64,000 bases of DNA from Pseudomonadota bacterium (GTDB lineage Bacteria > Pseudomonadota > Gammaproteobacteria > JAKAQQ01). Positions within the stretch are counted from its first letter, which is position 1; each line of letters starts with the position of its first letter. Shown one piece after another: positions 4,034 through 53,540 of the stretch. The stretch lies in NCBI GenBank assembly GCA_021839245.1, contig JAKCBQ010000005.1:4043-68042 (forward strand), written 5' to 3'. A model generated the notes under the pieces. It was not told the DNA's origin. It saw nothing but the letters and a program-made list of their open reading frames with translations, and did no database searches. Position numbers and translations under genes: made by a program.

Positions 4034-5080
4034 CTAGGGGACGTTCCACGTGGAACATTCTCCAAGATCCTCCCTGCCTACAAGACCATTTTCCTGTGAG
4101 GTAAGGATCAATTGATGCCTCCCGCCTGTAATGAAGTCAAAAACTTCTTTCCTCGATGCAGGGTCAAGGTCCGATGGAAAATCATCGAAAAGGACATGCA
4201 CGTCCTTTCCCGTCATGTTCGAAACAGCATCCATTGCCGCCCACATTATTCCAACTGCAAGTCTCTTTTGCTGACCCCTTGAGAGATGGCCTCGTGTGTC
4301 AGAGGTGCCGTCGACACGGATCATAAAGGAGGAAAGTTGAGGACTAGAAAATAGCCTTGTTCCCTTGAGAATCGTCTCGCGAATTTTTTTGTAGTCGACC
4401 TTTGCATCGAAGCCTGCTGAGTAGGCGAAGACAATGCTTCGCCCTGGGAAAAGTTTTATGACATTTTGATCGAGCGTCGGTATAAGACTGGAGAAAGCCT
4501 GACTTCGGCTGATTTCAATGGCCTCCGCAGCATTTGCAGCCTGCCTCCACCAAGATTCTTCTCCTGGCATGGACAGCCTCACACATTCCTTCCACTGGAT
4601 GTAGGCTTTTCTGAAATTCCTAAGATTGGAGACGTGGTCACGTTCCACGTGGAACGCAACCCAATCCAGAACACCTCTTTTTCGTGCAGGCTCCCCTGAG
4701 ACAATATCCACAATATCCCTATTCAAATAAACAAATGGGAAACGCCTCGAAATATCAGAATGCGTGGTTGTTGCTGTATTCATTTCGAGCTCGGTCTTCC
4801 TTCTTGACCCATCGAAGAGAAACCTGATACTGGCATGCTTCTCGTTCTTCGAAGAAAAATCTATTCTCGATTCAAATGACTTTCTACCGTCAGAAATCAT
4901 CCTATTCAGGTGTCCCGTGCGAAAGGAACGCCCTCTCATCGTGGTATAGATTGCCTCAAGGAAAGTCGTCTTCCCAGATCCATTTGGCCCCTGTATGAGA
5001 AGGTCTCTCTGACTCAGATTAACGATCACGGGCTCGCGAAAGCAGCGGATCCCCTCCAGGGCGACCCGGATGAGTGCCAT
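4034..5080 (-). CDS. recF: DNA replication and repair protein RecF
   Basis: 348-aa ORF with Walker A GPNGSGKTTFLEAI and the SMC-like signature LSRGQQKRL. Located downstream of dnaN. Markedly lower GC (about 45%) than flanking DNA. Confidence 0.93.
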   Translation of the reverse strand: MALIRVALEGIRCFREPVIVNLSQRDLLIQGPNGSGKTTFLEAIYTTMRGRSFRTGHLNRMISDGRKSFESRIDFSSKNEKHASIRFLFDGSRRKTELEMNTATTTHSDISRRFPFVYLNRDIVDIVSGEPARKRGVLDWVAFHVERDHVSNLRNFRKAYIQWKECVRLSMPGEESWWRQAANAAEAIEISRSQAFSSLIPTLDQNVIKLFPGRSIVFAYSAGFDAKVDYKKIRETILKGTRLFSSPQLSSFMIRVDGTSDTRGHLSRGQQKRLAVGIMWAAMDAVSNMTGKDVHVLFDDFPSDLDPASRKEVFDFITGGRHQLILTSQENGLVGREDLGECSTWNVP

Positions 5081-6195
5081 CAGATGCGAAGGGGCATAAT
5101 CACGCTCTTCTGCTCTCCCTTGCTTGTGCCCGGCTCAAGAATGCTGCTTGCGGCTGCCGTTGTCATTCGAAAAACTCCTCTCTCATCTCTTATGCTGGCC
5201 AATGCCTCGAGTATGTAGTCTGCGTTGAAGGAAATCTCAATGTCTTCTCCCTGTTGCTCGACATCGACTGTTTCCTCCGATATGTCGTTCTGTTTGTTCT
5301 TGGCCAACACACGTAGGACACTGCTGGAAAGAAGAAAGTTGACAGCACCATACTTTTCTCCGACGAGAGCACGCGCATGCTTGACGGATTCCTTTAAGTC
5401 GTTAATATTGAAATAAAAAAACTTATCTGGCGCGACGGGGATCACCCTTTCGTAGTCCGGGTAATCCTTGCCAGGCATGATGCGACTGGAGAGCCTCAGG
5501 TCTCTTGTCAGAAACCTAACGGTATTTTCGCTAAGAGCGATTGTGACCGTTGTGTCCGTTAGCGTAGCCAGAATTTTTTCCATTTCCAGGACGGCCTTGC
5601 GGGGAAGTATGAGGTTGGCACTTTCTCCCGTACTTTTGACTTCGGCTTCATCCATCGAGAGTCTGTGTCCATCCGTTGCGACCGCACGTAATTTTCCATC
5701 TCGCAGGACGAGGAGCATGCCGTTGAGATAGTGTCTCGAGTCGTTCTGGGCCATGGCATATGATGTGGCACGAAAGAGAGAGAGAAGTCGCTCTGACGAA
5801 ATTTCGAGCGTGCCCCTTGGCTCCTCTGCCCTCATGACAGGGAAGTCCTCTGCCGGAAGAGTGGCGATAACGAAACGGCTCTTGCCGCTGTGCATCTGGA
5901 TGCGGTCTTGGCCCTGATCCTGTCGAAGCTCAAAGACCGCTTCTTCAGGGAAACTTCTCAGGATTTCATAAAACTTCCTTCCTTGGACGAGGACTTGGAA
6001 CTCCTCACCCGTAACATCGAGAGACTGCTGCGCCTCCAGCTCGACCTCGCTGTCGGTCGCACAGGCTTTGAGGTGAGATCCCTTTTTGTAGAGAAGAACA
6101 TGACTCAGTACGGGAAGTGGTGCACGGGTATCAACGACACCAAGGACATGTTGGAGAATTCGGCTGATCTGAGAGTTGACGATATTCATCCGCAT
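5080..6195 (-). CDS. dnaN: DNA polymerase III beta sliding clamp
   Basis: 371-aa ORF with three-domain beta-clamp architecture. The N-terminus MRMNIVNSQISRILQHV is DnaN-like. Stop overlaps the recF start by 1 bp. GC about 48%. Confidence 0.95.
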   Translation of the reverse strand: MRMNIVNSQISRILQHVLGVVDTRAPLPVLSHVLLYKKGSHLKACATDSEVELEAQQSLDVTGEEFQVLVQGRKFYEILRSFPEEAVFELRQDQGQDRIQMHSGKSRFVIATLPAEDFPVMRAEEPRGTLEISSERLLSLFRATSYAMAQNDSRHYLNGMLLVLRDGKLRAVATDGHRLSMDEAEVKSTGESANLILPRKAVLEMEKILATLTDTTVTIALSENTVRFLTRDLRLSSRIMPGKDYPDYERVIPVAPDKFFYFNINDLKESVKHARALVGEKYGAVNFLLSSSVLRVLAKNKQNDISEETVDVEQQGEDIEISFNADYILEALASIRDERGVFRMTTAAASSILEPGTSKGEQKSVIMPLRI

Positions 6196-6267: not shown

Positions 6268-6398
6268 TGTGGGTAACTAGGAGGACAGCGTAGAGGATCG
6301 GTTGTTTGCATGGTTGTGTTCAACGTGATGGATGTGGAAAATCTGTGAATATCCTGAAGGGTAATGGGGCCAACCGACATAGAAAAAACTTATTCACA
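6268..6398. promoter_or_regulatory. Cluster of DnaA boxes in the dnaA-dnaN intergenic region
   Basis: Matches to TTWTNCACA: ttattcaca at about 6390-6398 (perfect), tgtggaaaa (rc ttttccaca) at about 6333-6341 (perfect), tgtgggtaa at about 6268-6276 (one mismatch), tgtgaatat at about 6344-6352 (one mismatch). AT-rich context. Confidence 0.5.
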
Positions 6399-11904: not shown

Positions 11905-13749
11905 TTGCCGGAGGAAGCCGACGTCATCGTCGTGGGAGGTGGTCACGCGGGGACGGAAGCCGCTTCGGCCGCCGCTCGCTTGGGCTTGCGGACCATTCTC
12001 ATCACGCAAAGTCTCGACACCCTCGGCCAAATGAGTTGCAACCCTGCGGTCGGGGGGGTCGGCAAGGGTCATTTGGTGCGCGAGATCGACGCGCTCGGTG
12101 GGGTGATGGGTTGGGCGGCCGACCGTGCTTGTATCCACGGACGGGTTCTCAATACGCGCAAGGGACCAGCCGTCCAAGCGACACGCCTTCAATGCGATCG
12201 GGTTCTCTACCGGGCTCTTGTGCGCGCTCGGCTGGAATCTCATTCCGAGCTGCGTTTCGTCCAGCAGGGAGTAACAGATCTTCTCCTGGAAGGCGAACGC
12301 TGTACGGGCGTGGTCACCGGTCTCGGGATTCGGCTGAGAGCGCGCACGGTGGTGCTGACCACCGGAACGTTCCTTTTGGGTCGACTTCACGTCGGTCAAT
12401 GGCAGGGCGAAGGCGGACGAGCCGGCGACCCTCCGGCGCAACATCTTGCACGGCGCCTGCGGGAATTGCCTCTGCGGGTGGGCCGACTGAAGACAGGTAC
12501 CCCGCCACGTTTGGACGGTCGGACCATCGATTTTTCGGGTCTCGAGGTCCAACCTGGCGATGAGCCGCCCCCGTGGTTTTCGTTCGACGGACCGCCAAGC
12601 AAGCGCCCACGCCAGGTGTCTTGCCATCTGACCCGAACTCGGACCGAGACGCACGAGATCATCCGTGCCGCCTTGGATCAATCGCCGGTCTACGCGGGTC
12701 GGATTGAGGGGGCCGGTCCGCGATACTGCCCGTCGATCGAGGACAAAGTCGTGCGTTTCGCCGATAAGACAGGCCACCAGATTTTTCTTGAACCCGAGGG
12801 GCTCGAAACCACAGAGATCTACCCCAACGGCGTTTCAACCAGTCTGCCCTACGATGTCCAGTTGGCGTTTCTGCGTACCATTCCCGGACTCGAAAAGGTC
12901 GTTATCACCCGACCGGGCTACGCGGTCGAATACGATTACATGGATCCCCGCGATCTGCATCCTTGGTTGGAGAGTCGGGTGGTCGGCGGATTGTTCTTGG
13001 CCGGCCAGATCAACGGCACGACGGGGTACGAAGAGGCCGCCGCTCAAGGGCTTCTTGCGGGATTGAACGCGGGACGAATGGCCCGCGGACTCTCACCGTG
13101 GTGGCCCGAGCGCGAGCGGGCGTACCTTGGCGTGCTGGTCGACGATCTTCTTACGCAGGGCGCTCCCGAGCCGTACCGGATGTTCACAAGCCGGGCCGAG
13201 TACCGTCTGTGGCTTCGTGAGGATAACGCCGACGAACGGCTCACACCTCAAGGCCGCGAGCTGGGGCTCGTCGATGACGAACGCTGGCGTGTCTTTGTCC
13301 GCAAACAGGAGCGCATCACCGACGCCCTCGAGACTCTCGCGCGTGTGGCGACGCCCTCGGGGGGTTCCCGAACGCCCGTCGAGGTTCTTGCTTCCCCCGA
13401 AAGCGAGTACGAAACTCTTCGTCGGCATTATCCTGACCTGCCGGGCCTTGAGGGTGAAGAAGCGCGCGGCGTCGCCATTCGCCTGCGTTATCGGGGGTAT
13501 CTCGAACGGCAGCGAGCCGAAATCGAACGCTGCCGTGAATTTGCCGCCGAACCTCTCCCGCCGGATCTCGATTACGCCGCGCTGCCCGGGCTGACGAACG
13601 AGGCACGGATCCGGCTTCTCGAACGCCGTCCGCGGACGGTGGGTGAGGCATCTCGGCTGCCCGGCATCACACCGGCGGTCATCACGATTCTCGTCGCGGC
13701 CAGCCGTCGCCGCGCATCTCGAGGCGAACGCCTCACGGTGCGGCCGTGA
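11905..13749 (+). CDS. mnmG: tRNA uridine-5-carboxymethylaminomethyl synthesis enzyme MnmG (GidA)
   Basis: FAD-binding [14 protein letters not shown]. 614 aa. TTG start by the ORF tool, so the exact start is uncertain. Confidence 0.92.
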
Positions 13750-14753
13750 CGGCGTTCCCGCCCTCGCCCGATATTCCTCTCGCAACGGGGGATGGGCCAA
13801 CAGCGCCTCGGGTGGACCCTTTTGGAGTGGGGATTGTGGACGCGCATCACGTCAGACCGGGTGTTCTTGCGTGTCATGTTCTGCGCTCTGGGCGTGATCT
13901 CGGTCTTATCGACGTAGGTCCTAACCCTTCGGTGCCACACGTTCTCGCCGGACTGGCCAGTCTTGGTCTTGAGCCCACCGGGGTGACCCACCTTTTTGTG
14001 ACCCATGTCCATCTCGATCACGCCGGGGGTGTCGGCCGGATCCTGTCCGAGCTGCCGCGCGCGCGGGTTTACGTCCACCCTGCGGGTGCCCGGCATTTGG
14101 CACGCCCGCAACGGCTCGAGCAGGCGACGAGGGAGGTTTACGGAGACGCTCGCTACGAGCGTTATTTCGGCGCTCTTATTCCCGTGCCGGAGGAGCGAAT
14201 GACGAGTGTCGCGGACGCGGAAGCCATCGTCTTTGGAGAGACGCGACTGCGTGTTCTGCACACTCTGGGTCATGCGCGGCACCACTACTGTTTGCATGAC
14301 GAGGAGGGCGGTCTCGTCTTTGCCGGGGACAACTTCGGGATCGCCTATCGGGCTCTCGTAACCGAGCAAGGTTCGTTTGCGTTCCCCTCGACAACGCCGA
14401 CTCAGTTTGACCCTGATGAGGCGCGTTTGAGCCTGGAACGTCTTCTGGCCTTGAACCCACGGGCGCTCTATGTCGCGCATTACAGCCGCATCGACGAGCC
14501 CGAGCGTGTGGGCCGGGAATTGGTGGCCGACCTTGCCGCCTACGTCCGCATCGCGCGCGAACACGCTTCGGAACGAGCCGGCTCAGCCCGGACGGAACGC
14601 CTGCGGAACGCTCTTGCGAGCTACACGCTCGGGCGACTGCGTGCGCACCGCTGCGCGCTTTCCGAAGAGACCATCGGCGAGTTGCTTTCCACGGACCTCG
14701 AGCTCAATGCGCTCGGACTGGACCACTGGCTCACACGGCTCGATTCGGAATGA
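13746..14753 (+). CDS. MBL-fold metallo-hydrolase
   Basis: HVHLDHAGG (HxHxDH) metallo-beta-lactamase motif. Start overlaps the mnmG stop. First gene of the inserted block. Confidence 0.7.
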
Positions 14754-15775
14754 ATCTTTCCCTGCCTCCGGGGCGTGCTCTTATACTGAGTCTGGAGGAG
14801 GGAGCCGTGCGAGCGCAGGTGGTGACGCAAACACCGCCCCATCCCGGCGAAGGGGAACTGCTCGTCCGCGTCCTCTATTCGGCCATCAATTACAAGGACG
14901 CCCTTGCGGTGAGTGGGCGGGGTCGGATTCTGCGTCGGAGTCCACTCATCGGAGGCATCGACGCGGTGGGCATCGTCGTGGCAAGTCGTGCTCACGGCTG
15001 GACGCCGGGGACCGTCGTCGTGGCCGCAGGGGGAGGACTCGGGGAAGAGCGGGACGGTGGCTACGCCGATTATCTCTCCGCACCGGCCACCATCCTGACA
15101 CGTGTTCCGGAGGGCTTGAACCCGTTCGAGGCCGCCGCTCTGGGAAGCGCGGGACTCACCGCCGCGCTGGTTCTCGAGCGACTGGAGCAAGCCGGTCTCA
15201 GACCCGAGCAGGGCACGGTGCTCGTTACCGGGGCGAGCGGCGGCGTCGGCAGTTTCGCCATCGATCTCTTCACCCGGGCTGGCTACCACGTGGTTGCCAT
15301 GAGCGGACGGGAGGAACTGCGTGAGTATCTGACAGCTCTTGGAGCAGTGGAGGTCATTGCACCGCCTCAATCCGCTGCGGCTCCGGTCGGTTTGGCTTCG
15401 GCCCGCTGGTCGGCGGCCGTCGACAATGTGGGTGGACAGACGTTGGCCTGGATCCTCGAGCGCATCCGACGTGGGGGCAAGGTGGCCGCCGTCGGGATGG
15501 CGGCGAGCAGCACCGTCACTCTAAGCATCTTCCCCTTGATCCTGCGTCAGGTGGATCTCTTGGGCGTGAATTCGACCGAGGTTGATCACGAGCGACGAGC
15601 CTCCCTCTGGGCGCGTTTGGCCGGCCCATGGCGTCCCAGACATCTCGATCGGATTGCGGCTCGAACTGTCGGTTTTGACGAGATTCCCGGAGCCGTTGAC
15701 GACGTTCTCGAGCGCCGTCACCACGGACGGATTGTCGTTGGCCTCGGAGGCGGTGTCGCAGAGTCCGCGTGTTAG
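14750..15775 (+). CDS. acuI: YhdH/AcuI-family NADPH-dependent acrylyl-CoA reductase / quinone oxidoreductase
   Basis: Aligns throughout with E. coli YhdH (SAINYKDALA, VLVTGASGGVGS, GGKVAAVGMA). MDR superfamily. Confidence 0.75.
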   Translation: MNLSLPPGRALILSLEEGAVRAQVVTQTPPHPGEGELLVRVLYSAINYKDALAVSGRGRILRRSPLIGGIDAVGIVVASRAHGWTPGTVVVAAGGGLGEERDGGYADYLSAPATILTRVPEGLNPFEAAALGSAGLTAALVLERLEQAGLRPEQGTVLVTGASGGVGSFAIDLFTRAGYHVVAMSGREELREYLTALGAVEVIAPPQSAAAPVGLASARWSAAVDNVGGQTLAWILERIRRGGKVAAVGMAASSTVTLSIFPLILRQVDLLGVNSTEVDHERRASLWARLAGPWRPRHLDRIAARTVGFDEIPGAVDDVLERRHHGRIVVGLGGGVAESAC

Positions 15776-15825
15776 AATCTGAGACATTCACCGAGTCCTC
15801 GTGATCGTCTCGTGATCGTCCGCCC

Positions 15826-16731
15826 ATGACGAAGATTCCTTCGCTCCACGATGCGCTTGCCCGGGAGCAACCCTTGCAGGTTGTGGGTGTTGTCAACGCT
15901 TACTGTGCGCTCCTCGCTCGTCGTGCAGGCTTCCGGTCCCTTTATCTCTCGGGGGCCGGAGTGGCGAATGCCGATCTTGGTGTGCCGGATCTCGCGATCA
16001 CCACTCTTCATGATGTTGCGTCCCAAACCGATCGGATCACATCCGCCGTCGATCTGCCGCTGCTGGTGGACGCCGACACCGGCTTTGGGTCCGCGTTCAA
16101 CATCGCCCGCACGGTACGCACGCTTGAGCGGGCGGGGGCCGCAGGGCTTCATCTCGAGGATCAGGTTGCGGCCAAGCGCTGCGGCCACCGGCCCGGCAAA
16201 CGACTGGTGCCGTCCTCGGAAATGGTCGACCGCCTCAAGGCGGCTCTTGACGCACGCGAGAACCGCGCTTTCGTCATCATGGCCCGTACTGACGCGGCGG
16301 CGGTCGAGGGACTCGAGGCCGCGATCGATCGTGCCCGTCTCTACGTCGAGGCGGGGGCCGATATGATCTTCGCTGAGGCGCTCACGGACGAGGCGTCGTA
16401 TGTCCGCTTCACGAGCGCAGTTTCCGTCCCTGTTCTCGCGAACATGACCGAGTTCGGGCGAACGCCCCTCCTTGATTTGGCAACGCTCGGACGCCTCGGC
16501 GTGGCTCTTGCCCTCTATCCGCTCACGGCGTTCCGCGCGATGAGTGCCGCGGCGCAACACACCTATGAGGTGCTTCGTCGGGATGGGCACCAGCGTGCTC
16601 TTCTCAAAGCTATGCAGACACGGGAAGAGCTCTACGAAATCCTGAACTACCACGCCTATGAGCACCGCCTTGATCGTCTTTTTGGGGCTGGGAACGACGG
16701 TGACAGGCCAAACGAGGAGACTATATCGTGA
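15826..16731 (+). CDS. prpB: 2-methylisocitrate lyase
   Basis: ICL/PEPM family with the EDQV..KRCGH catalytic loop (HLEDQVAAKRCGH). Followed by prpC and prpD. Confidence 0.85.
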   Translation: MTKIPSLHDALAREQPLQVVGVVNAYCALLARRAGFRSLYLSGAGVANADLGVPDLAITTLHDVASQTDRITSAVDLPLLVDADTGFGSAFNIARTVRTLERAGAAGLHLEDQVAAKRCGHRPGKRLVPSSEMVDRLKAALDARENRAFVIMARTDAAAVEGLEAAIDRARLYVEAGADMIFAEALTDEASYVRFTSAVSVPVLANMTEFGRTPLLDLATLGRLGVALALYPLTAFRAMSAAAQHTYEVLRRDGHQRALLKAMQTREELYEILNYHAYEHRLDRLFGAGNDGDRPNEETIS

Positions 16732-17852
16732 GCAAAACCTCCATCAAGACCGGCGGTCTCGCCGGCGTGACCGCCGGCGAGACCGCCATTTCGACCGTCG
16801 GTAAGGAAGGTGTCGGACTGACCTACCGTGGTTATGCGATTGAGGAACTTGCGGCTCGTGCATCGTTTGAAGACGTGCTCTATCTCCTTCTCGAAGGGCG
16901 ACTGCCCTCTCACAAGGAGCGCACGGACTACGAGCGGAGACTTGCCGAGGCGGCGCCGTTGCCTGCGTCTCTTGCTTCCGTTCTCGAAAGGATCCCCGCG
17001 TCAACCCATCCGATGGACGTCTTGCGCACCGGCCTCTCCATGCTTGGGTGTCTCGAGCCTGAAAAAGACTTTTCCCAACTGAACGCTTGCGCTATCAGAT
17101 CCGTGGCTCTTGCGCCCGCCATCCTTCTTTACTGGTTTCGTTTTTGCCGCGACGGGAAACGGCTTGATACAACGAAGGGTGCGGGCCGGGTGGCACGACA
17201 TTTCCTGACCCTTCTTCACGACCGCGCCCCCACCAGCGAGCATGAGCGCGCCCTCGACGTATCGCTCATTCTCTACGCCGAACACGAATTCAACGCTTCG
17301 ACTTTCGCCGCGCGTGTGTGTGCCGGCACGCTTTCCGATTACCACTCGTGCATCACCGCCGCGGTCGGGACGCTCCGTGGGCCTCTCCACGGCGGGGCCA
17401 ATGAGGCGGCGATGGAGCTCATCGAACGTTTTGCGACGCCCGAAGAGGCCGCACGCGGCGTCCGTTCAGCCTTGGATCGCAAGGAGAAGATCATGGGGTT
17501 CGGGCATCGCGTCTATCGCGATCACGATCCCCGGCACGCGGTGATCAAGGAATGGTCGCGCCGCCTTGCAGCCGAGGTGGGTGACCGACGCCTTTTCCCC
17601 GTCTCGGAGGCGATTGAGCAGGTCATGTGGGAAGAAAAACGGCTCTTCCCTAATCTTGATTTCTACAGCGCTACGGCCTACCACTTCCTCGGTATTCCCA
17701 CTCCGCTGTTTACCCCGATCTTTGTCTGCTCACGTTTGAGTGGCTGGTCGGCCCACGTCTCCGAACAGCGGGCCAACAACCGTCTCATCAGACCCGATGC
17801 CGCTTATGTGGGGCCGGATCCCCGCCCGTTTCCTGAGGAAACGGAGCGGTGA
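16728..17852 (+). CDS. prpC: 2-methylcitrate synthase
   Basis: Citrate-synthase family (GFGHRVY, LYPNLDFYSA). Overlaps the prpB stop. Confidence 0.85.
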   Translation: MSKTSIKTGGLAGVTAGETAISTVGKEGVGLTYRGYAIEELAARASFEDVLYLLLEGRLPSHKERTDYERRLAEAAPLPASLASVLERIPASTHPMDVLRTGLSMLGCLEPEKDFSQLNACAIRSVALAPAILLYWFRFCRDGKRLDTTKGAGRVARHFLTLLHDRAPTSEHERALDVSLILYAEHEFNASTFAARVCAGTLSDYHSCITAAVGTLRGPLHGGANEAAMELIERFATPEEAARGVRSALDRKEKIMGFGHRVYRDHDPRHAVIKEWSRRLAAEVGDRRLFPVSEAIEQVMWEEKRLFPNLDFYSATAYHFLGIPTPLFTPIFVCSRLSGWSAHVSEQRANNRLIRPDAAYVGPDPRPFPEETER

Positions 17853-19264
17853 ACGTCTCGCCCACCTACGACCCGCTTCTCGTCGAACTCACCCGCTACG
17901 CGCACGGTCCGGAAGCGGGGGGTGAAGAGGCCTTCCGCAACGCACGGATCTCGCTTGGAGACGCTCTGGGTTGCGCCTGGCGGGCGCTGGCTCTCCCCGC
18001 CTGTCGGCGTGTTCTTCCCCCGCTCGGCCCTGTCGGTGCCCCGGCGGACGGACTCCCCGTCCCAGGGCTCCGCGTTTCGCTTGACCCGGTACAGGCGGCG
18101 TTCGCCCTCGGGACGATGGTTCGCTGGCTCGACTACAACGACACCTGGCTGGCCCGCGAATGGGGGCATCCTTCCGACAACCTTGGCGCGCTTTGGGTCG
18201 CAGCCCTCTTATCCTCCCGCGAAAAACGTTCGGCCGTGCCGATGCGCACACTGCTCGCCGCGCTCATCAAAGCCTACGAAATCCAGGGTGTTCTCGCCTT
18301 GGGTACGGCGCTCAATCTTTACGGATTCGATCATGTTTTCTACGTCCGCTTGGCGAGTACGGCCGTCTGCTCGGTGCTGTTGGGCACGGACGAGGAGACG
18401 ACGTTGCGTGCACTTTCGAATGCGGTCGTCGACGGCGCTGCGCTGCGCACCTACCGCCATGCCCCCAATACCGGATCGCGCAAATCCTGGGCCGCGGGCG
18501 ATGCCACGGCGCGCGGACTCTGGCACGTTCTTCTGGCCCGACGGGGAGAAATGGGATATCCCGGAGCGCTGAGCACCTCGACCTGGGGGTTTGAGGATGC
18601 CGTTCTCCGCGGTGAACGTCTCACTCTTCCCAGGGCGCTAAATTCGTATGTCATGGAAAATATCCTCTACAAAGTTTCCTATCCGGCCGAGTTCCACGCG
18701 CAGACGGCTGTGGAGGCGGCGGTGGCCCTTCACGCCGAGATCGGCGGTCGGACGGAAGAGATCGAAAGCATTGAGCTTGAGACTCAGGAAGCCGGTCTGC
18801 GTATCATTCACAAGACCGGTCCTTTGCGCAACCCCGCCGATCGTGACCATTGTCTCGAATACATGGTGGCCGTCGCTCTCCTGCGTGGCACCCTCAGGGT
18901 CGAGGATTATGAGGACGAGCAGGCCCGAGACCCCCGGATCGACACGCTTCGGGCACGGATGACCGTCCGCGAGAATCCGGCGTTCACCCGTGACTATCAC
19001 GACCCCGACAAGCGGACCATCCCCAATGCGGTTCACCTCGTCATGCGCGACGGTCGTCGACACGAACGGCTCATCGCGGCTCCTCTTGGCCACCGCTCGC
19101 GCCGCACGGAAGCCCGTCCTCTTCTGATCGAAAAGTTCCGGCACAACGCCGCCATGGCTTTGCCTCCCGAGCGAGTCGAGCGTCTCGCGGCCCTCTGCTT
19201 TGGTCAAGGAAATGAGCTCGACACGATGACGGTGGAAGACTTCGCCACTCTTCTCACCGCCTAA
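17849..19264 (+). CDS. prpD: 2-methylcitrate dehydratase
   Basis: MmgE/PrpD family, 471 aa. Overlaps the prpC stop. Confidence 0.85.
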   Translation: MNVSPTYDPLLVELTRYAHGPEAGGEEAFRNARISLGDALGCAWRALALPACRRVLPPLGPVGAPADGLPVPGLRVSLDPVQAAFALGTMVRWLDYNDTWLAREWGHPSDNLGALWVAALLSSREKRSAVPMRTLLAALIKAYEIQGVLALGTALNLYGFDHVFYVRLASTAVCSVLLGTDEETTLRALSNAVVDGAALRTYRHAPNTGSRKSWAAGDATARGLWHVLLARRGEMGYPGALSTSTWGFEDAVLRGERLTLPRALNSYVMENILYKVSYPAEFHAQTAVEAAVALHAEIGGRTEEIESIELETQEAGLRIIHKTGPLRNPADRDHCLEYMVAVALLRGTLRVEDYEDEQARDPRIDTLRARMTVRENPAFTRDYHDPDKRTIPNAVHLVMRDGRRHERLIAAPLGHRSRRTEARPLLIEKFRHNAAMALPPERVERLAALCFGQGNELDTMTVEDFATLLTA

Positions 19265-19272
19265 AGGGACCG

Positions 19273-20358
19273 GTGCCGACATTGCGCGGACGGACATCAC
19301 CCGACGAGGCGTTGCGCCGCCTCGAAAAAGTCGGGCTGATTCCACCCGCCATGCTCACGGATGTTCTCGAGCTGCTGCGCGAACGTGCAGCGGGAGGACC
19401 CGTTTATCGTTGGGAAATAAGAGGACAGTCACGTCTGGCCGTTTTCGATCCTCTTCTCGCGGGCGAGACAGCTCGTCCGCGCGTTCATGCTCTTGCTTTT
19501 CCGCGGCCGCATGGGCCGCGCGAACGGCGCTGGGCCTCGTCTTTTGTGGCCGAGTCGGTGCACGGTGGTGGTCTGCGGACCACACGATTGTCCGAGGCGG
19601 CGGAAAGCGCCTGGAATAGCCTTCGTCAAAGCCGTGCACGAGCAAGGCTTCTGGATGATCTTCTTGCCCGCTATAGCCCTGGAGCCCTCCGTCCGCTGGG
19701 GCGCGATCTTCGTGACCACGCTCATCGCCTCACCGTTTTCTGGACGGAGGGGCACGAGGATGAGGAGTCGGTGCGGTTGCTCGGTCGGGCGGTCGCGGGA
19801 GACGAGCTGGCCGCCCGGCTTTACCGTCAGCGTCTGGACGGTATTTCAGGCGCGGCTCACGACAGTGTCCTGTCCCGTCTTGGTGAGACGGATCCAGAGA
19901 CGCTCGATGACGCCGCTCTCTTTTCTGAGATCACCGCCCGTGTGTTCGGGGATCTCCTTGGCGCGATGGGCCGGGTCTTGTGCACTGTCCACCCCGGCGG
20001 CAGCGCGGCGTTGCTCGAACACGTCCTCTCGAACGATCCGCCGTGGTGGATCCATGTGCGTGAGACGACGCACGACTACCGCCTGGGTGTACACCGCTTG
20101 CCCCCAAGGGCCCGAATCTTCATCACTGTGCCGCTTCTGACTGTCGAGGGGACGGAATCTACGGTCTGCGGTCACATGCGCGCCCTTGCTCTCGGTGCCA
20201 ATCTTTGCCCCTCGCTGCTGCTCTTGCTCCAGCATGCCCGTGACCTTGATGATCGTTTGGCGGCGGTTGGTCGCCTCGAGCCAGTTCTGTCCGTACATTT
20301 CATCGAAGCCAACGGCGCCAGCGTTTCGGACACGATGGGCGTTCATGTCCGCCGATAA
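19273..20358 (+). CDS. Hypothetical protein, fourth gene of the prpBCD operon (unknown family)
   Basis: 361-aa ORF starting 9 bp after the prpD stop on the same strand. No motif I can assign. Confidence 0.5.
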   Translation: MPTLRGRTSPDEALRRLEKVGLIPPAMLTDVLELLRERAAGGPVYRWEIRGQSRLAVFDPLLAGETARPRVHALAFPRPHGPRERRWASSFVAESVHGGGLRTTRLSEAAESAWNSLRQSRARARLLDDLLARYSPGALRPLGRDLRDHAHRLTVFWTEGHEDEESVRLLGRAVAGDELAARLYRQRLDGISGAAHDSVLSRLGETDPETLDDAALFSEITARVFGDLLGAMGRVLCTVHPGGSAALLEHVLSNDPPWWIHVRETTHDYRLGVHRLPPRARIFITVPLLTVEGTESTVCGHMRALALGANLCPSLLLLLQHARDLDDRLAAVGRLEPVLSVHFIEANGASVSDTMGVHVRR

Positions 20359-20469
20359 GCCCGTCCTCGTCCAAGGTCACGATCGAGACGGCCAGGAGAA
20401 CATGTCGAGCTTTGCTAGAATGAGCCCGGCGCCCCCGGGCGCTCTTTGAAACCTCTTGGAGATGCACGT

Positions 20470-20904
20470 ATGACTCGTGGCCCACATTCGCGTACGGTCC
20501 TGGCCTTGCTGGGAATGTTGCTGCTTCCGGCGCTTCACGCCACCCCTATGCTTCGGTCCGGACTCTGGCGCTACGACATTCATATTCTCAGCGGTGGTCA
20601 CAACACCAGCACCCATACGCTAGAGCATTGCTACAAGAAGCCCCGACTTCTGAAACCCGACACACCCAAGGGGTGCGAGGCTCCGGCCCTCCATGTCCAA
20701 GGCACAACGGCACGGTGGGTGGTGGCATGCACGCTTGCAAACGGCATGGTTCATATCCGTTCGCGGGGGATCATTACCTATCTCGACAGAGGGAACGCCT
20801 TTCAGGAGTCCTCGGTGAGCCAGATCACAATGCCCACAACAGGAACCCGTGTCTTCCAAGTGCGCATGACTGGGACGCGGCTGGGGGCGTGCCCGAAAGG
20901 GTGA
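20470..20904 (+). CDS. Secreted DUF3617-like protein
   Basis: N-terminal signal peptide (LALLGMLLLPALHA, no lipobox Cys), then a GLW-containing domain that from memory resembles DUF3617 periplasmic proteins. A search is needed. Confidence 0.45.
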   Translation: MTRGPHSRTVLALLGMLLLPALHATPMLRSGLWRYDIHILSGGHNTSTHTLEHCYKKPRLLKPDTPKGCEAPALHVQGTTARWVVACTLANGMVHIRSRGIITYLDRGNAFQESSVSQITMPTTGTRVFQVRMTGTRLGACPKG

Positions 20905-21012
20905 TGGAATGAGGACGATTGCGCTCGGGCACGGCGTGGCTCGTGGCGCGTGCCAGGCCGCTTCGTGGTCCCTGCGTGATGGTGGCCGCCGCGCTCACGG
21001 CTCAGGCACAGC

Positions 21013-22734
21013 ATGACGCGCCCGCGGCGATCGGCGGGTTCCCTTTGGTGTTGGTGGTTTGCCGTCGTCCCGGCTCTGGCTGTCGCCCAGGCCAGCCCGC
21101 GCCCTGTTCCGGTGGGGGTGGAGAGTTGCGCACGGCTTCTCCCCCCAAAGGTTTCGATCAGCGCCGGGCCGTGGGCTTATGCGCATCTCTGGTCACTCCT
21201 CCAGAAGCAAGGCTACGTGTTGCGTGCGGTCCGGATCAGGCGCATCAATGTCTACAACCTTGCGCGTCCCGGCGAGAATCTCTGGTACACCCGCCTCGTT
21301 GACTTTCTGCACATTAAGACGCGCACCTCAACCGTCCGGGTGCTTCTTTTCCTCCATGCGGGACAAGCGGTGCGTGCCCGGACGGTCTACGAAAACGAAC
21401 GTTTCCTTCGTTCGTTGGGCTTTCTGCGCAACGCCGTCGTGGTGCCGGTGGATTGTCACCAGCGCAAAGTTACGGCCCGCGTGATCACCTACGACGCATG
21501 GACGCTCAAGCTTGATGTCAAATTTGGCCGCGTCGGAGGAAGCAACGAAACCCGCTACAAGTTGGTCGACACCAATTTTTTGGGATTCGGGAAAACGATT
21601 GGGATTGGCCGGGCCACGACGCTCGAGCGGTCTGAGACGATTTACGAATACAAGGATCCCGCTCTCTTGGGCAGCCGATGGCAAGGGCAGTTCTTTTACG
21701 ATCAACTTTCAGACGGGGCTCGCAGGATCGTCGATGTGGGTCGACCGTTTCTGCGCGATACCACACCCGTTGCATGGAATTTTGCCGAGTTGGATCAGCA
21801 AGAAAATCTGCAGATCTATGACCACGGTGCACTGGCCGATCTTGTGCCCTGGGACGAGAAATCACTGACAGCCAGTTACGGACGGCTTTATGCGGCGCGG
21901 GGGAGCACCTTTGATCGGCTGTTTCTTGTTGCGCGTGTGGAGGACGACACGTACGGCGTTCCTACCGCCGTCGATCAGCCCGCGCTTGACGCCACGATCC
22001 CGCAGCCCGATCGGCGGGAACACGGTCTCGGCCTCGGTTGGCAGAGTTATCAAGACCGCTTCGCGAGTTTCGAGAACATCCGCTATATCGGGCGTGTGGA
22101 AGACTACGATCTTGGCTGGAACATGTCCGCCCGTCTGCTTTTCGACCCGACATTTCTGGGCAGCTCCGCCACCGGCTGGGCCGGACGCTTCGCCGCGAGC
22201 GATGGATGGCGGGTGGGCTCGCACGGACTTTTGCTCGGCCACTTCACACTGGTCGGGCAGAGCCTCGACGGTCGCCTTGAGAACGGTGTACTGCGTACGG
22301 ACCTCACACTCTACGAGCAAACCTGGCCGTTTCAGACCCTTGTTCTGCACGGAGCGTACGCCGGCGAAGTCCATCCGTTTCCTGAAAATTTTCTCTATCT
22401 CGGAGGCGCAAACGGGTTGCGCGGTTATCCCAATTTCTTCCGGATTGGCACACAACGTTGGATCACGACCGTTGAAGACCGGATTGTGACTCCCATCGTT
22501 CTGTTGCACACGTTCGAGATCGGCTTCGTGGCGTATGCCGATGCCGGTGCCGTCCGCCGTCTCTCGCCGGGAGGCTGGAGCCGGATCTTCGCGGACGTCG
22601 GAGGGGGATTGCGCCTCGGCAATTTGCGAGGCGCCTACGGGGAAGTGCTTTACTTCACGCTGGCCTGGCCCCTCGTGCGTACACCCAATGTTCCGAGCCA
22701 TCAGTTCGTCGTCGGCGACCAGGTGCGGTTTTGA
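21013..22734 (+). CDS. Omp85-family outer-membrane beta-barrel protein (POTRA plus barrel; BamA/TamA/TpsB-like)
   Basis: 573 aa, signal peptide WWFAVVPALAVAQA, long beta-strand-rich C-terminus ending in the aromatic residue F (...VGDQVRF). No TpsA-like partner gene is adjacent. Confidence 0.65.
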   Translation: MTRPRRSAGSLWCWWFAVVPALAVAQASPRPVPVGVESCARLLPPKVSISAGPWAYAHLWSLLQKQGYVLRAVRIRRINVYNLARPGENLWYTRLVDFLHIKTRTSTVRVLLFLHAGQAVRARTVYENERFLRSLGFLRNAVVVPVDCHQRKVTARVITYDAWTLKLDVKFGRVGGSNETRYKLVDTNFLGFGKTIGIGRATTLERSETIYEYKDPALLGSRWQGQFFYDQLSDGARRIVDVGRPFLRDTTPVAWNFAELDQQENLQIYDHGALADLVPWDEKSLTASYGRLYAARGSTFDRLFLVARVEDDTYGVPTAVDQPALDATIPQPDRREHGLGLGWQSYQDRFASFENIRYIGRVEDYDLGWNMSARLLFDPTFLGSSATGWAGRFAASDGWRVGSHGLLLGHFTLVGQSLDGRLENGVLRTDLTLYEQTWPFQTLVLHGAYAGEVHPFPENFLYLGGANGLRGYPNFFRIGTQRWITTVEDRIVTPIVLLHTFEIGFVAYADAGAVRRLSPGGWSRIFADVGGGLRLGNLRGAYGEVLYFTLAWPLVRTPNVPSHQFVVGDQVRF

Positions 22735-23420
22735 TGACCGCGGTGAGTGCAGGCGAAGAACTCGGGTCCAGTGAGCACGCTCTTCTTCGCCCGTGGCTGA
22801 CGAGCCTTGATGAGCAAGACGCCGCCGTCTTTCTCGATGCTCTCGCCCGCTACCTCGAACTCCTCCACCGGTGGAGTCGTGCGTACGATCTCGTCGGCCC
22901 GAAGGAGTTCGGCCGTCTGGTGGCCCGTCACGTCCTTCCCTCCCTCGCTCTCGCCACGTACCTGAATCCACAGGCTTCACTGCTCGATGTCGGTTCCGGA
23001 GCGGGGTTCCCGGGACTTGTGATCGCTCTGCGCGATCCCACCCGACGGGTTGTTCTCGTTGAGCGTAACGGGAAAAAGGCTCGTTTCCTCGATCACGTGG
23101 CGCGTCGCCTGAATCTCGAGCATCTGCAGGTTGTCCACGACGATGTCCGTCGCTTCCAGGATGGCCCGTTCGACGTGGTCACGGCACGCGCCTGGGGATC
23201 GGCCCGGAATCTCCTGGCCGCCAGCGGCCATCTTGCTCATGAGGCAACGGTCTGGCATCTCCTCAAAGGCCGGCGGGGGCGCACTGAAATCGACGCTTTG
23301 TCGCCTACGTGGCGGCCGGTCTTTGCTCCCCTTTTCCCCGATGCCTTTGGGCGGAGAGAAGATTTTCTGCTGACGGTGGTACGATCGAACCCCTCTCCTT
23401 CCACCGGGCGATCCACGTGA
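22731..23420 (+). CDS. rsmG: 16S rRNA (guanine527-N7)-methyltransferase RsmG (GidB)
   Basis: SAM-binding LLDVGSGAGFPGLVIAL. Canonical partner of mnmG, here separated from it by about 9 kb. Confidence 0.9.
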   Translation: MMTAVSAGEELGSSEHALLRPWLTSLDEQDAAVFLDALARYLELLHRWSRAYDLVGPKEFGRLVARHVLPSLALATYLNPQASLLDVGSGAGFPGLVIALRDPTRRVVLVERNGKKARFLDHVARRLNLEHLQVVHDDVRRFQDGPFDVVTARAWGSARNLLAASGHLAHEATVWHLLKGRRGRTEIDALSPTWRPVFAPLFPDAFGRREDFLLTVVRSNPSPSTGRST

Positions 23421-24250
23421 GCACCATCGTTGCTGTCGCCAACCAGAAAGGGGGTGTCGGCAAAACGACGACCGCCGTTAACCTCGCGGCCGCCTTGGCG
23501 AGTCACCGTCTGCCGGTTCTTCTCGTCGATCTCGACCCCCAGGCCAACGCCACAGCCGGGGTCGGAGTCGACAGGCGACAGCTCCATGCGTCTGTCTACG
23601 ACGTGCTCGTCGGAGGCCGGTCGGTCACAGGCCTCCTACACGAAGTGGAGACGGGTCCTCTGCGTTTCCACCTTTTGCCCGCGCATCCCGATCTGACGGC
23701 CGCTGAAGTCGTCATGACGCGTGAGGGGGGGGCCGAGCGGCGGCTCGCCGAGGCGTTGGCGCCCCTGCGCGAAGGGTTCACGTGGATCCTGATCGATTGT
23801 CCCCCGAGCCTGAACGTTCTCACCCTCAACGCGCTCGTCGCGGCCGACAGCGTTCTCATCCCGGTCCAATGTGAATACTATGCCCTTGAAGGGTTGAGCG
23901 CTCTTTGCGCCACGATCGAACGGGTGCGCGCGAGTGTCAACCCTCGGCTCGTCATCGAAGGACTTCTGCGCACTATGTACGATCCACGAAGCAATCTCAA
24001 CCAGGAGGTTGCGCGTCAGCTGCTCGACCATTTCGGTAGCCAGGTTTTCCGGACCATCATTCCGCGCAACATCCGCCTCGCTGAGGCTCCGAGCCACGGA
24101 CGAAGTGCACTCGCGCACGATCAAGGCGCCAAGGGGGCGTGGGCCTACTTCCTTCTTGCACGTGAGATCCTGGTCCGTCGGGGCATGATGACCGCCGATC
24201 TCTCCGACCCGTCCGGCCTGGAAGAGCGGCCATTCCCCCCCGGGGATTGA
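23417..24250 (+). CDS. parA: Chromosome partitioning ATPase ParA (Soj)
   Basis: Deviant Walker A VANQKGGVGKTTTAVNLAAAL. GTG start overlaps the rsmG stop. Confidence 0.9.
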   Translation: MSTIVAVANQKGGVGKTTTAVNLAAALASHRLPVLLVDLDPQANATAGVGVDRRQLHASVYDVLVGGRSVTGLLHEVETGPLRFHLLPAHPDLTAAEVVMTREGGAERRLAEALAPLREGFTWILIDCPPSLNVLTLNALVAADSVLIPVQCEYYALEGLSALCATIERVRASVNPRLVIEGLLRTMYDPRSNLNQEVARQLLDHFGSQVFRTIIPRNIRLAEAPSHGRSALAHDQGAKGAWAYFLLAREILVRRGMMTADLSDPSGLEERPFPPGD

Positions 24251-24293
24251 TAGAATCGCGGCAACAGCGCGCGATTCGAGGGAGGTGCGTAAG

Positions 24294-25163
24294 ATGGCGA
24301 AAAAACCGGCTTTGGGACGCGGGCTTGAGGAACTTCTCGGACGCGCGACCGTCGTCGGCGGTGAGACGGAAGGCGATGGGGATGTGCGACCCATCCCCAT
24401 CGAGTGGCTCACCCCCGGCCCGTATCAGCCGCGGCGCAGCATGGATCCCGACGCGCTCGAGGATCTGGCGGACTCCGTGCGTCGTCACGGCATTGTGCAA
24501 CCGGTGCTCGTCCGCCGATTGGCGCCCGACCGCTATGAGATCGTTGCCGGCGAGCGGCGTTGGCGTGCCGCGCAGAAGGCGGGCCTTCGGGAGATCCCCG
24601 CGATGGTTCGCTCGCTCGATGACCGCACGGTTTTGCAGATGGCGCTCATCGAGAATGTCCAACGGGCCGACCTGAGCCCGCTTGAGGAGGCACAGGCCCT
24701 CGATCGTCTGTGCCGGGAGTTCGGCATGACGCACGAGGAGGCGGGACGTGCGGTCGGCCGTTCACGAGCGACGGTATCGAATCTTCTCCGTCTTCTCGAT
24801 CTTGACGAGGAGGTGCAGCGTGAGGTTTTGGACCGCCGCCTCGACATGGGCCACGCACGGGCGCTTCTTGCTCTTCCTGCGGAAGAACAACGGGGCTTGG
24901 CCCGCCGCGCGGTCCGAGAGAAACTCTCGGTTCGTCGTCTTGAAGCTCTTGTGCGCGCGGCCCAGAAGGGATCCGTCAAACGCGCACGGCCGAAGGCCCT
25001 GACCGATCCCGATCTGGCGCGTGTGGCCCGTCTCTTGGGCGAGCGGCTGGCCACTCGCGTCGAGATTGTCCCCCGCATCGGAGGGGGGGGGCATCTCAAG
25101 ATCCACTATGAGAGCCTGGCGGCTTTCGACGAGCTGATGGAGCGGCTCTCCGTCGAACTCTAG
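24294..25163 (+). CDS. parB: Chromosome partitioning protein ParB (Spo0J)
   Basis: MAKKPALGRGLEELL start, ParB box GERRWRAAQKAGL. GGAGG ribosome-binding site about 10 nt upstream of the ATG at 24294. Confidence 0.9.
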   Translation: MAKKPALGRGLEELLGRATVVGGETEGDGDVRPIPIEWLTPGPYQPRRSMDPDALEDLADSVRRHGIVQPVLVRRLAPDRYEIVAGERRWRAAQKAGLREIPAMVRSLDDRTVLQMALIENVQRADLSPLEEAQALDRLCREFGMTHEEAGRAVGRSRATVSNLLRLLDLDEEVQREVLDRRLDMGHARALLALPAEEQRGLARRAVREKLSVRRLEALVRAAQKGSVKRARPKALTDPDLARVARLLGERLATRVEIVPRIGGGGHLKIHYESLAAFDELMERLSVEL

Positions 25164-35432: not shown

Positions 35433-35471
35433 CCGAGTCAGGGGAGAAGACTCGGCCTCTACTCTATACTT
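35433..35471 (+). terminator. Candidate intrinsic terminator downstream of glmS
   Basis: Perfect 7-bp inverted repeat ccgagtc-(9 nt)-gactcgg followed by a weakly T-rich tract (cctctactctatactt). Confidence 0.35.
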
Positions 35472-35538
35472 GAACCGGGTCGGACGTGACAACGCGCTAC
35501 GTTTCGATGGTCCGTGTGTTGACTTCAAGGAGTCCGTG

Positions 35539-38007: not shown

Positions 38008-38576
38008 TCCGTCTGGGGCACAAAGAGCGACGAGGGGGCGCGGGGGGGGGCGAAGACGAGACGTAAGGGAGCGGGATTGAGGATCCCTCCTTCGGTCCCC
38101 GCGAGGGTGACGTGTTGCCAGAGGCGAGCGCGATGAGCAAGCCACCTTGCTCCGGTCCCCCACGGCCGTGGGGGACCACCGCGGCGGACGGCCCCTTCCG
38201 GGAAAAGGCAGACCGCCCCGCCGACGTCAAGGTGCCGTCCAAGCGTGCGCAGGGCAAACGGCTCGGTGGGCGAGAGGCTGACGAAAGCGTGACCGAAGAG
38301 CGTGGCGTAAGCCCTAAGAAGCTGGCCCCAAGGAGCCTTATGAGCGTAGTCGGGATCGACGCCGAAGAGGAGCGGGCGGCGCACGGCAAGGCCTAGTAGC
38401 GGTCCGTCGATGAAGCCGGGATGATCGGCTGTCAGGAGGAGACCGGATTCTTCGCTGGGGACGCCTTGGACAATGAGGGAGCGGTGGAGGGTCAGGAGTT
38501 TGAGAAGACGGAGGCGCAGGAAAGGTTCGGGCACGATGGATTCCTGAAAAAAGGGGGCCTGTGAAAAGGCCCCCAA
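37923..38576 (-). CDS. PlsC-family lysophospholipid acyltransferase (C-terminus questionable)
   Basis: HxxxxD motif (DHPGFID) and FPEG motif (CLFPEGAVRRG). The last 60 codons are low-complexity and overlap the fadE 3' end by 85 bp, so the true stop or frame is doubtful. Confidence 0.45.
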   Translation of the reverse strand: MGAFSQAPFFQESIVPEPFLRLRLLKLLTLHRSLIVQGVPSEESGLLLTADHPGFIDGPLLGLAVRRPLLFGVDPDYAHKAPWGQLLRAYATLFGHAFVSLSPTEPFALRTLGRHLDVGGAVCLFPEGAVRRGGPPRPWGTGARWLAHRARLWQHVTLAGTEGGILNPAPLRLVFAPPRAPSSLFVPQTDQPLEGSGWVPSSRRSKSSTATISSTRS

Positions 38577-38582
38577 GGGTGA

Positions 38583-38828
38583 TTAGACGACCCCGTGGCG
38601 TTGACGGAGGGCTTGTTCGGCCTCGTCCAGCTGGCGCCGGGTGAGATCGCCCCGCAGCCGTCGGCGGCCTGCGGTGATCATCCGCTCAAGACGCGGGCGG
38701 TCGCGTCGCGCGATCGCGGCGAATCGCGCGTGGAGCTCTTCGTTTTCCTCGTCGCGGACAGCCGCTTCCTCGTCGGCCGTGAGTCCGTCGAGTATTGTCA
38801 ACGCCCCGTTTTCGACGTCGTTTCCCAT
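38583..38828 (-). CDS. Small highly charged helical protein (81 aa), hypothetical
   Basis: ATG-initiated ORF MGNDVENGALTILDGLTADEEAAVRDEENEELHARFAAIARRDRPRLERMITAGRRRLRGDLTRRQLDEAEQALRQRHGVV. Could be a spurious high-GC ORF. Confidence 0.3.
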   Translation of the reverse strand: MGNDVENGALTILDGLTADEEAAVRDEENEELHARFAAIARRDRPRLERMITAGRRRLRGDLTRRQLDEAEQALRQRHGVV

Positions 38829-40576: not shown

Positions 40577-40654
40577 GGGCGGGAACTCCCTGGTGTCTGA
40601 AGATACCCGTATCCTGCCACGAGGAGCGGGGTCTTGTCCACTGTCCTCTTTCGC

Positions 40655-53536: not shown

Positions 53537-53540
53537 AGAA

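Follow-up and report, generated by a model that had tools for sequence, protein, structure and literature searches.

Between mnmG (gidA) and rsmG (gidB), two housekeeping genes near the chromosomal origin of a gammaproteobacterium (Pseudomonadota bacterium, assembly GCA_021839245.1), lies a block of about 9 kb that encodes eight proteins, among them a YhdH/AcuI-family enoyl-CoA reductase and PrpB, PrpC, and PrpD of the methylcitrate cycle. The window analyzed here is a 64,000-nucleotide (nt) stretch of contig JAKCBQ010000005.1, and the eight open reading frames (ORFs), all on the + strand, fill the mnmG-rsmG interval from position 13746 to position 22734. The block is old and is inherited within a group of uncultured Gammaproteobacteria; it is an "insertion" only relative to distant bacteria. 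It is probably, though not assuredly, an expansion of the origin-proximal mnmG-rsmG-parAB unit that is specific to its lineage and passed on vertically, neither mobile nor recent. The expansion would sit in a deep uncultured gammaproteobacterial lineage, which would have this trait in common with Steroidobacteraceae-type genomes.

The initial annotation of this DNA described the mnmG-rsmG interval as filled by eight tightly spaced genes of one orientation, and both their coordinates and their families are borne out. It also took adjacency of the two border genes to be the norm. This too is correct, in that rsmG lies directly 3' of mnmG in 49 of the 76 evaluable species-representative mnmG loci, including those of Gammaproteobacteria with the same yidC-mnmE-mnmG-rsmG-parA-parB synteny. 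What had to be given up is the proposal that the block was inserted in or near this genome, as relatives share the arrangement, which is ancestral to the clade. The same proposal is further countered by Steroidobacteraceae-type contigs in which genes for a glutathione peroxidase (GSHPx), a cytochrome c, a metallo-beta-lactamase (MBL)-fold hydrolase, and an AcuI-type reductase occupy the mnmG-rsmG interval (described below).

Which relatives carry the block? The closest species representatives, L011 and L021, whose mnmG is 95% and 83% identical to that of the window, both do. All six homologue clusters of the 361-amino-acid (aa) ORF in the block sit in the context mnmG-MBL-acuI-prpBCD-ORF-DUF3617-omp-rsmG-parAB, and patchy presence among close relatives was not seen, the block being found in every relative recovered. 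The layout is not an assembly artifact, because 20 independent contigs with an identical 361-aa protein show the same arrangement. A second clade, represented by L100, L103, and L107, has the order mnmG-GSHPx-MBL-acuI-prpB-prpC-prpD-orf395-DUF3617-omp-ppsA-rsmG-parAB-atp, with dnaA about 5 kb upstream. Its identity to the window is 60% for mnmG, 70% for PrpC, and 45% for the omp product. The interval of the second clade is larger, with ten genes, the added ones being those for GSHPx and phosphoenolpyruvate synthase (ppsA), and its orf395 shows weak homology to the 361-aa ORF. Within the window clade, one lineage (L091/L092:1-2663) has NADH-dehydrogenase-like genes (Complex1_30kDa/49kDa, Oxidored_q6) rather than yidC-mnmE before mnmG; there, synteny upstream of mnmG is broken and the block is intact.

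The block has also diverged at the pace of its surroundings. Synonymous divergence (dS) from L011 is 0.15 to 0.20 in the block genes and 0.18 to 0.21 in mnmE, mnmG, rsmG, and parA, and the ratio of nonsynonymous to synonymous divergence (dN/dS) ranges from 0.07 to 0.34 over the eight genes, all of which are under purifying selection. The block had been judged host-like at the outset, and the composition check agrees: the G+C content at third codon positions (GC3) is 0.64 to 0.71 in the block versus 0.65 to 0.77 in most flanking genes, and the codon-usage score is equal, leaving block and flanks indistinguishable. The claim that integrase and insertion sequence signatures are missing likewise stands, with no integrase, transposase, or conjugation families among the eight block genes and nine alternative-frame or antisense ORFs, either strand considered; the antisense and alternative-frame ORFs inside the block had no family matches at all. 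Scans for tRNAs and Rfam families returned nothing in or near the block, the sole tRNA lying at 46019. Finally, a search of the flanks for direct and inverted repeats, including the short direct repeats suggested with the insertion proposal, gave only chance-level matches (at most 31 nt, 66 to 100% identity), none of them at the borders.

Set beside these observations, a recent horizontal acquisition, in which an island or mobile element would have entered the mnmG-rsmG interval in this organism or its immediate ancestors, is highly improbable. Such an event would fit the other named taxa sampled, which have mnmG and rsmG adjacent and not this arrangement, and metabolic cargo is typical of islands. 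However, every relative found carries the block, even where the 361-aa protein has fallen to 41% identity, and so does the second clade; the dS, GC3, and codon usage of the block are those of the host; and integrase, transposase, tRNA, and flanking repeats are all missing. A real candidate for a mobile element does exist, but elsewhere in the window, as a type IV secretion set beside a tRNA-Ser gene at about 46 kb.

Table 1. The eight-gene block, its borders, and the genes that follow (positions in the window)
Feature	Position	Strand	Evidence
mnmG (gidA), upstream border	11905..13749	+	TIGR00136, 784 bits; PF01134, 525 bits
MBL-fold metallo-hydrolase	13746..14753	+	PF00753, 81.8 bits
YhdH/AcuI-family (MDR012) NADPH enoyl-CoA reductase, putative acrylyl-CoA reductase	14750..15775	+	TIGR02823, 343.5 bits (cutoff 297)
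prpB, 2-methylisocitrate lyase	15826..16731	+	NF008455, 459 bits (cutoff 353); TIGR02317, 410 bits (cutoff 354)
prpC, 2-methylcitrate synthase/citrate synthase II	16728..17852	+	TIGR01800, 465 bits (cutoff 421)
prpD, 2-methylcitrate dehydratase	17849..19264	+	NF006943, 628 bits (cutoff 575); TIGR02330, 587 bits (cutoff 458)
361-aa lineage-restricted ORF, putative very divergent cytochrome-P450-fold protein	19273..20358	+	Fold comparison and profile search
DUF3617 protein	20470..20904	+	PF12276, 28.7 bits (cutoff 24.5)
573-aa Omp85-superfamily outer-membrane protein	21013..22734	+	Predicted structure, Foldseek
rsmG (gidB), downstream border	22734..23420	+	TIGR00138, 127 bits (cutoff 99.5)
parA and parB, rest of the gidAB-parAB-type unit, followed by the atp operon	23417..25163	+	Gene calls, Pfam families

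The genes are packed so closely (Table 1) that several share nucleotides. Overlaps of 4 nt join MBL to acuI, prpB to prpC, prpC to prpD, and rsmG to parA, while the omp stop codon and the rsmG ATG share 1 nt (TGATG). At the upstream border, mnmG and the MBL gene overlap if the latter starts at GTG 13746 and are separated by at most 62 nt if it starts at GTG 13812. A third start, at 13836, is chosen by some gene callers and gives a 305-aa protein; it was dropped because the conserved sequence DPFGVGI is encoded upstream of it. The other intergenic gaps across the block measure 8 to 111 nt. At both borders the block is closely coupled in translation to its housekeeping neighbors, as genes added to an existing operon would be. 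Stop and start codons overlap at either border and terminators are lacking, which suggests read-through from mnmG to rsmG-parAB. Such read-through would give the block broadly constitutive expression linked to origin dosage.

The setting is a classical gammaproteobacterial origin region, with gyrB, recF, dnaN, and dnaA on the - strand and yidC, mnmE, mnmG, the eight-gene block, rsmG, parA, parB, the atp operon, glmU, and glmS on the + strand. A candidate oriC, marked by three DnaA-box-like 9-mers (one mismatch each) at 6268 to 6398, lies in the dnaN-dnaA intergenic region near the minimum of the cumulative GC skew, about 7.5 kb from the block. The gidAB-parAB operon of Pseudomonas aeruginosa is under DnaA control and contains internal promoters (PMC13438810). 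The window shares the genes, order, and strand of that operon and of the gammaproteobacterial yidC-mnmE-mnmG-rsmG-parA-parB-atp synteny at the flanks of the block, but it differs in having eight genes interposed (ten in the second clade) and in having no DnaA-box cluster at mnmG: the search found none there or in the block, the only cluster being the one between dnaN and dnaA. The same region holds an oddity of its own, in that recF and dnaN (4034 to 6195) have GC contents of 0.49 and 0.51 and GC3 values of 0.52 and 0.57, against about 0.62 and 0.68 in their neighbors, which is unusual for core replication genes.

What might the block do? PrpB, PrpC, and PrpD all score at or above curated cutoffs, PrpC being borderline for one equivalog model (NF009006, 549.2 versus 550 bits). 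Together these three enzymes make up the PrpD-type 2-methylcitrate cycle, which needs a separate aconitase and differs from the AcnD/PrpF type. Judging from family membership, PrpC would condense propionyl-CoA with oxaloacetate and PrpD would dehydrate the resulting 2-methylcitrate; a housekeeping aconitase encoded elsewhere would rehydrate the product, and PrpB would then cleave 2-methylisocitrate to pyruvate and succinate. A look-up of further enzymes covered the block genes plus the scanned window ORFs of at least 200 aa, and in this set there is no propionyl-CoA-forming enzyme (PrpE or a CoA transferase), no aconitase, and no prp regulator. Having no CoA ligase or transferase, aconitase, or regulator, the locus is therefore not a self-contained catabolic operon; the genome may encode a prp regulator and PrpE or a CoA transferase at another site.

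The comparison with prpBCDE of Salmonella enterica and Escherichia coli makes the point in another way. PrpB, PrpC, and PrpD are encoded in the same order and belong to the same PrpD-type variant, but prpE and a prpR-type regulator are missing from the locus. In the block, the MBL hydrolase and the YhdH/AcuI-family reductase precede the prp genes, and the P450-fold, DUF3617, and Omp85 proteins come after them. The prp genes are embedded in the mnmG-rsmG-parAB housekeeping unit, rather than forming a separately regulated catabolic operon. One candidate element within them was rejected: a perfect 16-nt palindrome with a 4-nt loop at 16752 to 16787, at the 5' end of prpC, shows no conserved structure and is a coding coincidence, because it encodes the conserved peptide GGLAGVTAGET and is imperfect in relatives.

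The gene that links this cycle to acrylate encodes the reductase. It belongs to the YhdH subfamily by curated model (TIGR02823, 343.5 bits versus 297.25) and has PDB sequence matches to YhfP (245 bits), E. coli YhdH (223 bits), and Ruegeria pomeroyi AcuI (194 bits), and its dN/dS is 0.17. Its naming as an acrylyl-CoA reductase in the initial annotation is right as to the family; the substrate can only be presumed, because the protein stays below the AcuI equivalog cutoff (NF051456, 274.6 versus 440 bits). Characterized members of the YhdH/AcuI family convert acrylyl-CoA to propionyl-CoA (PMC3338564, PMC4029986), and such activity has been assayed as NADPH-dependent reduction of acrylyl-CoA or by rescue of acrylate-sensitive E. 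coli yhdH mutants (PMC3338564, PMC4029986). The protein thus resembles E. coli YhdH and the AcuI proteins of Rhodobacter sphaeroides and R. pomeroyi in subfamily and in full-length similarity to solved structures, and the product of the AcuI/YhdH reaction, propionyl-CoA, is the substrate of PrpC, encoded nearby. It differs from known AcuI proteins in its sub-cutoff score, in its putative activity, and in its linkage to MBL, prp, and rsmG genes instead of ddd or dmdA. Most likely the reductase would turn acrylyl-CoA into propionyl-CoA, and the locus would thus clear two toxic C3 CoA esters. No description of a linkage between acuI and prp was found in the literature on acuI or acrylyl-CoA reductase with methylcitrate.

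From where would the acrylyl-CoA come? The initial annotation pointed to dimethylsulfoniopropionate (DMSP), and a module of this kind would activate DMSP-derived acrylate, reduce it with AcuI, and assimilate the product through the methylcitrate cycle. In DMSP degraders the acuI product does turn acrylyl-CoA into propionyl-CoA, and acuI is typically linked to ddd or dmdA (PMC3338564). The membership of the reductase in the AcuI family is consistent with such a role, but its score is below the equivalog cutoff, and ddd, dmdA, acuN/acuK, and transporter genes were found neither in the block nor among the scanned window ORFs of at least 200 aa. Moreover, AcuI/YhdH homologues are common in bacteria without a link or exposure to DMSP (PMC3338564, PMC4029986). 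A DMSP-catabolic module is thus very unlikely. An endogenous or general source would be likelier, for instance the metabolism of propionate, 3-hydroxypropionate, or acyl-CoA through its side reactions.

The constant partner of the reductase is the MBL-fold hydrolase, whose substrate may be a thioester. It scores well above the family cutoff (PF00753, 22.7 bits) and carries the HxHxDH metal-binding motif. The metal site is intact, with H87, H89, D91, H92, H176, D195, and H245 invariant in alignment A4. It reaches no specific subfamily cutoff among the curated models, and its dN/dS is 0.13. The family is large and uncharacterized, with more than 5,000 members at about 45% identity, and homologues stand alone in unrelated contexts in Azonexus and Thiodiazotropha; only in the lineages treated here is MBL paired with acuI. 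Among the better PDB sequence matches of the hydrolase is human LACTB2 (4ad9, E value 6.6e-7), an endoribonuclease. This match, together with the position of MBL-acuI directly upstream of rsmG in several divergent lineages, could suggest a function shared with the neighboring genes, either RNA modification alongside mnmG and rsmG, for example by an MBL ribonuclease and a reductase that act on tRNA or rRNA, or a part in chromosome biology alongside parAB. There is little to recommend this, and we regard it as hardly credible: the MBL family also occurs alone in unrelated contexts, prpB is joined to MBL-acuI just as often, the reductase is plainly a YhdH-type enoyl-CoA reductase by family, and a Pfam scan of the block detected no RNA-binding domain.

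How widespread are these gene pairs? Metagenome contigs were scanned with an AcuI alignment, and 63 loci had enough downstream sequence to be evaluable. Directly 3' of acuI was rsmG in 9 of the 63 and prpB in 8 of the 63, and MBL was directly 5' of acuI at 15 loci. The order MBL-acuI-prpB-prpC(-prpD) was found in L120, L125, L128, L167, and L174. Given this recurrence and the same genes in the second clade, the coupling of a putative acrylyl-CoA reductase to the methylcitrate cycle that was proposed initially is strengthened, while its DMSP origin is without support. As far as gene order can tell, the recurrent linkage of reductase and prpB in independent lineages supports a functional link and would be new evidence for one. 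Three AcuI proteins from the scanned contigs are labeled Steroidobacteraceae by NCBI. In one of these (L128:400-12892), rsmG-parA is encoded on the other strand at a distance of about 4 kb from MBL-acuI-prpB-prpC, which suggests a local inversion. Another locus (L158:1-5300) reads MBL-acuI-prpB fragment (86 aa)-prpD-rsmG-parA-parB, without prpC, and looks like prp genes decaying in situ inside the interval. A 1.7-kb mnmG-rsmG gap in L048 (Acidiferrobacterales) was set aside, as the DUF2914 gene in it is unrelated and runs in the other direction.

In other contigs the interval is occupied by a different set of genes. Fully covered examples (L109 and L136) have the order mnmG-(SBP5 peptide-binding protein)-GSHPx-(AidB-like acyl-CoA dehydrogenase)-cytochrome c-MBL-acuI-rsmG-parA-parB. 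The second clade and the Steroidobacteraceae-type contigs agree in the order of GSHPx, MBL, and acuI between mnmG and rsmG, which makes common descent or transfer as a unit far likelier than convergence. These loci bring up a further reading, which we consider possible but doubtful, namely, that the ancestral unit was a general electrophile or oxidative-stress module of GSHPx, cytochrome c, a glyoxalase-II-like MBL hydrolase, and an AcuI-type reductase that detoxified reactive enoyl or thioester species. The reductase would then not be acrylate specific, and prpBCD and the distal genes would have been added later in some lineages. GSHPx-(AidB)-cytochrome c-MBL-acuI does stand directly before rsmG, with no prp genes, in L109, L110, L136, L145, L151, and L183, and GSHPx precedes MBL in the second clade. 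In addition, AcuI-family enzymes may have other natural substrates, and what YhdH/AcuI does for bacteria that do not use DMSP has yet to be settled (PMC4029986). On the other hand, GSHPx and cytochrome c are missing from the window clade, whether by loss or from the start, and yet this clade keeps MBL-acuI joined to prpBCD, MBL-acuI-prpB is about as frequent as MBL-acuI-rsmG (6 versus 6 loci), and the available trees do not resolve the order of gain and loss. The stress module also overlaps with the lineage-specific expansion of the housekeeping unit rather than opposing it.

The three distal genes of the block encode proteins of a different sort. The 361-aa ORF was initially called novel, and it is so in having no family match and being restricted to its lineage: as a single sequence it matched nothing in Pfam, NCBIfam, or the PDB, its homologues form only six clusters (99% to 41% identity) among 5.8 billion proteins, and it has three credible representatives among 1.84 billion proteins. 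Weak single-sequence matches to P0056 and P0057 were disregarded as multistretch alignments to long proteins. It is less novel in fold. The AlphaFold2 model is of middling quality (predicted local distance difference test score [pLDDT], 66; predicted template modeling score [pTM], 0.66), and in a Foldseek search of the PDB with this model the top 50 matches were all cytochrome P450s (best E value, 8e-4; TM score, about 0.4). A profile that includes the second-clade counterparts (A3) matched the PDB sequences of CYP170A1 (E value, 1.2e-4) and CYP175A1 (E value, 5.5e-4) over about 100 residues, from the K-helix via the Cys pocket to the L-helix, and placed LALGANLC312PS opposite the heme-ligand motif FSAGKRKCPS of CYP170A1.

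Is this protein a functional P450? G308 and P313 are invariant in 10 of 10 aligned family members, and C312 is present in 7 of 7 window-clade sequences and in L103; two of the three second-clade sequences (L100 and L107) have Ser instead. The Phe and Arg of the heme-thiolate motif FxxGxRxCxG are not retained in the family, PF00067 is not matched by the protein even at an E value of 10, the ExxR motif is not intact, and the segment of the PERF meander is an alignment gap. The predicted topology otherwise resembles that of cytochrome P450s (nearest structures, CYP170A1, CYP175A1, and CYP102/109), with an N-terminal beta domain, a helical core, a Cys loop, an L-helix, and C-terminal strands. The protein differs from P450s in being shorter, with no PF00067 match, a deleted meander, a broken ExxR motif, and the Cys-to-Ser change in two second-clade members. 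Because several P450 hallmarks fail, it is termed here a divergent P450-fold protein with putative heme binding. The evidence for this is weak, with predicted structure and profile in agreement. The dN/dS of the gene is 0.23.

The DUF3617 protein has an N-terminal, signal-like hydrophobic stretch, and its ORF opens at TTG 20446. A positional counterpart is present in all relatives, and its gene is the least constrained of the block (dN/dS, 0.34). The last gene had been assigned to the Omp85 family, and the predicted structure confirms it. The AlphaFold2 model of the 573-aa protein (pLDDT, 88.3; pTM, 0.83) has one POTRA-like domain followed by a 16-strand barrel, and the best Foldseek matches in the PDB are BamA and TamA (E values, 3e-16 to 1e-12; probability, 1.0). 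Like those proteins it combines an N-terminal POTRA-like domain with a 16-strand barrel and ends in Phe (...VRF). BamA has five POTRA domains and TamA three; the 573-aa protein differs from both in having one, and its identity to them is 10 to 13%. It misses the curated models, with no Pfam match (PF01103) and scores of 19.5 versus 200 bits for NF047779 and 18.1 versus 297 bits for TIGR03303. Of its 48 homologues, 3 match PF01103, and the family is confined to a few gammaproteobacterial groups. The tie of omp to the block is lineage specific, because a homologue in a Rhodanobacteraceae metagenome-assembled genome stands alone in an unrelated context.

The P450-fold, periplasmic DUF3617, and single-POTRA Omp85 proteins would be co-inherited cargo, probably related to the envelope. 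One speculation goes further. The 361-aa protein may be the founding member of a compact, extremely divergent P450-fold family with the heme Cys kept in the window clade, and with the DUF3617 and Omp85 proteins it may form an envelope-linked system, co-selected with the AcuI and methylcitrate genes across clades with about 60% mnmG identity. Expressed from the origin-proximal gidAB-parAB operon, this system could possibly oxidize an imported or membrane-derived odd-chain, branched, or steroid-like substrate that yields propionyl-CoA. We offer this as a long shot.

Several considerations weigh against a lineage-specific expansion that is inherited vertically and acts in C3 metabolism. (i) Neighbor joining of mnmG groups the window clade with the second clade at a bootstrap of 64.5%, which falls to about 20% once Steroidobacteraceae-type sequences are added, so single-gene mnmG trees would leave a one-clade origin of the occupied intervals undecided. 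With such trees, spread by recombination through the conserved flanks is possible. (ii) The propionate pathway is incomplete at the locus. (iii) The block is not one demonstrated functional module, and co-inheritance is all that ties the three distal genes to propionate. (iv) Co-transcription with the housekeeping genes is probable from spacing, which is the one argument for it; scans for promoters and terminators were uninformative, with no more sites than in shuffled sequence (12 terminator-like sites versus 15.6).

Two other parts of the window deserve mention. Downstream of glmU/glmS, at 35470 to 45277, are genes for a FadE-type acyl-CoA dehydrogenase (845 aa), an inositol-monophosphatase-family protein, and the transhydrogenase PntA/PntB, a possible source of NADPH for the reductase. 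A tRNA-Ser(CGA) gene lies at 46019 to 46107 and is followed by a type IV secretion/conjugation set on the - strand (tRNA and set together, 46019 to 57230) that encodes TrbI/VirB10, CagX/VirB9, VirB8, TrbL/VirB6, a TraG-P-loop/VirB4-like ATPase, a VirB11-type ATPase, and a VirD4/TraG coupling protein. The GC skew is strongly positive from about 46 kb. An integrative conjugative element probably lies here, next to the tRNA.

Overall, an origin-adjacent housekeeping operon of the gidAB-parAB type can stably take up metabolic genes and stay tightly packed, across clades whose mnmG proteins share only about 60% identity. The block also offers two uncharacterized families, a degenerate P450-fold protein and a single-POTRA Omp85 protein. 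Why do bacteria that never meet DMSP carry YhdH/AcuI at all? The recurrent GSHPx-MBL-AcuI and MBL-AcuI-PrpBCD linkages give this question, posed in work on AcuI, a genomic context, one that points to the disposal of endogenous acrylyl- and propionyl-CoA.

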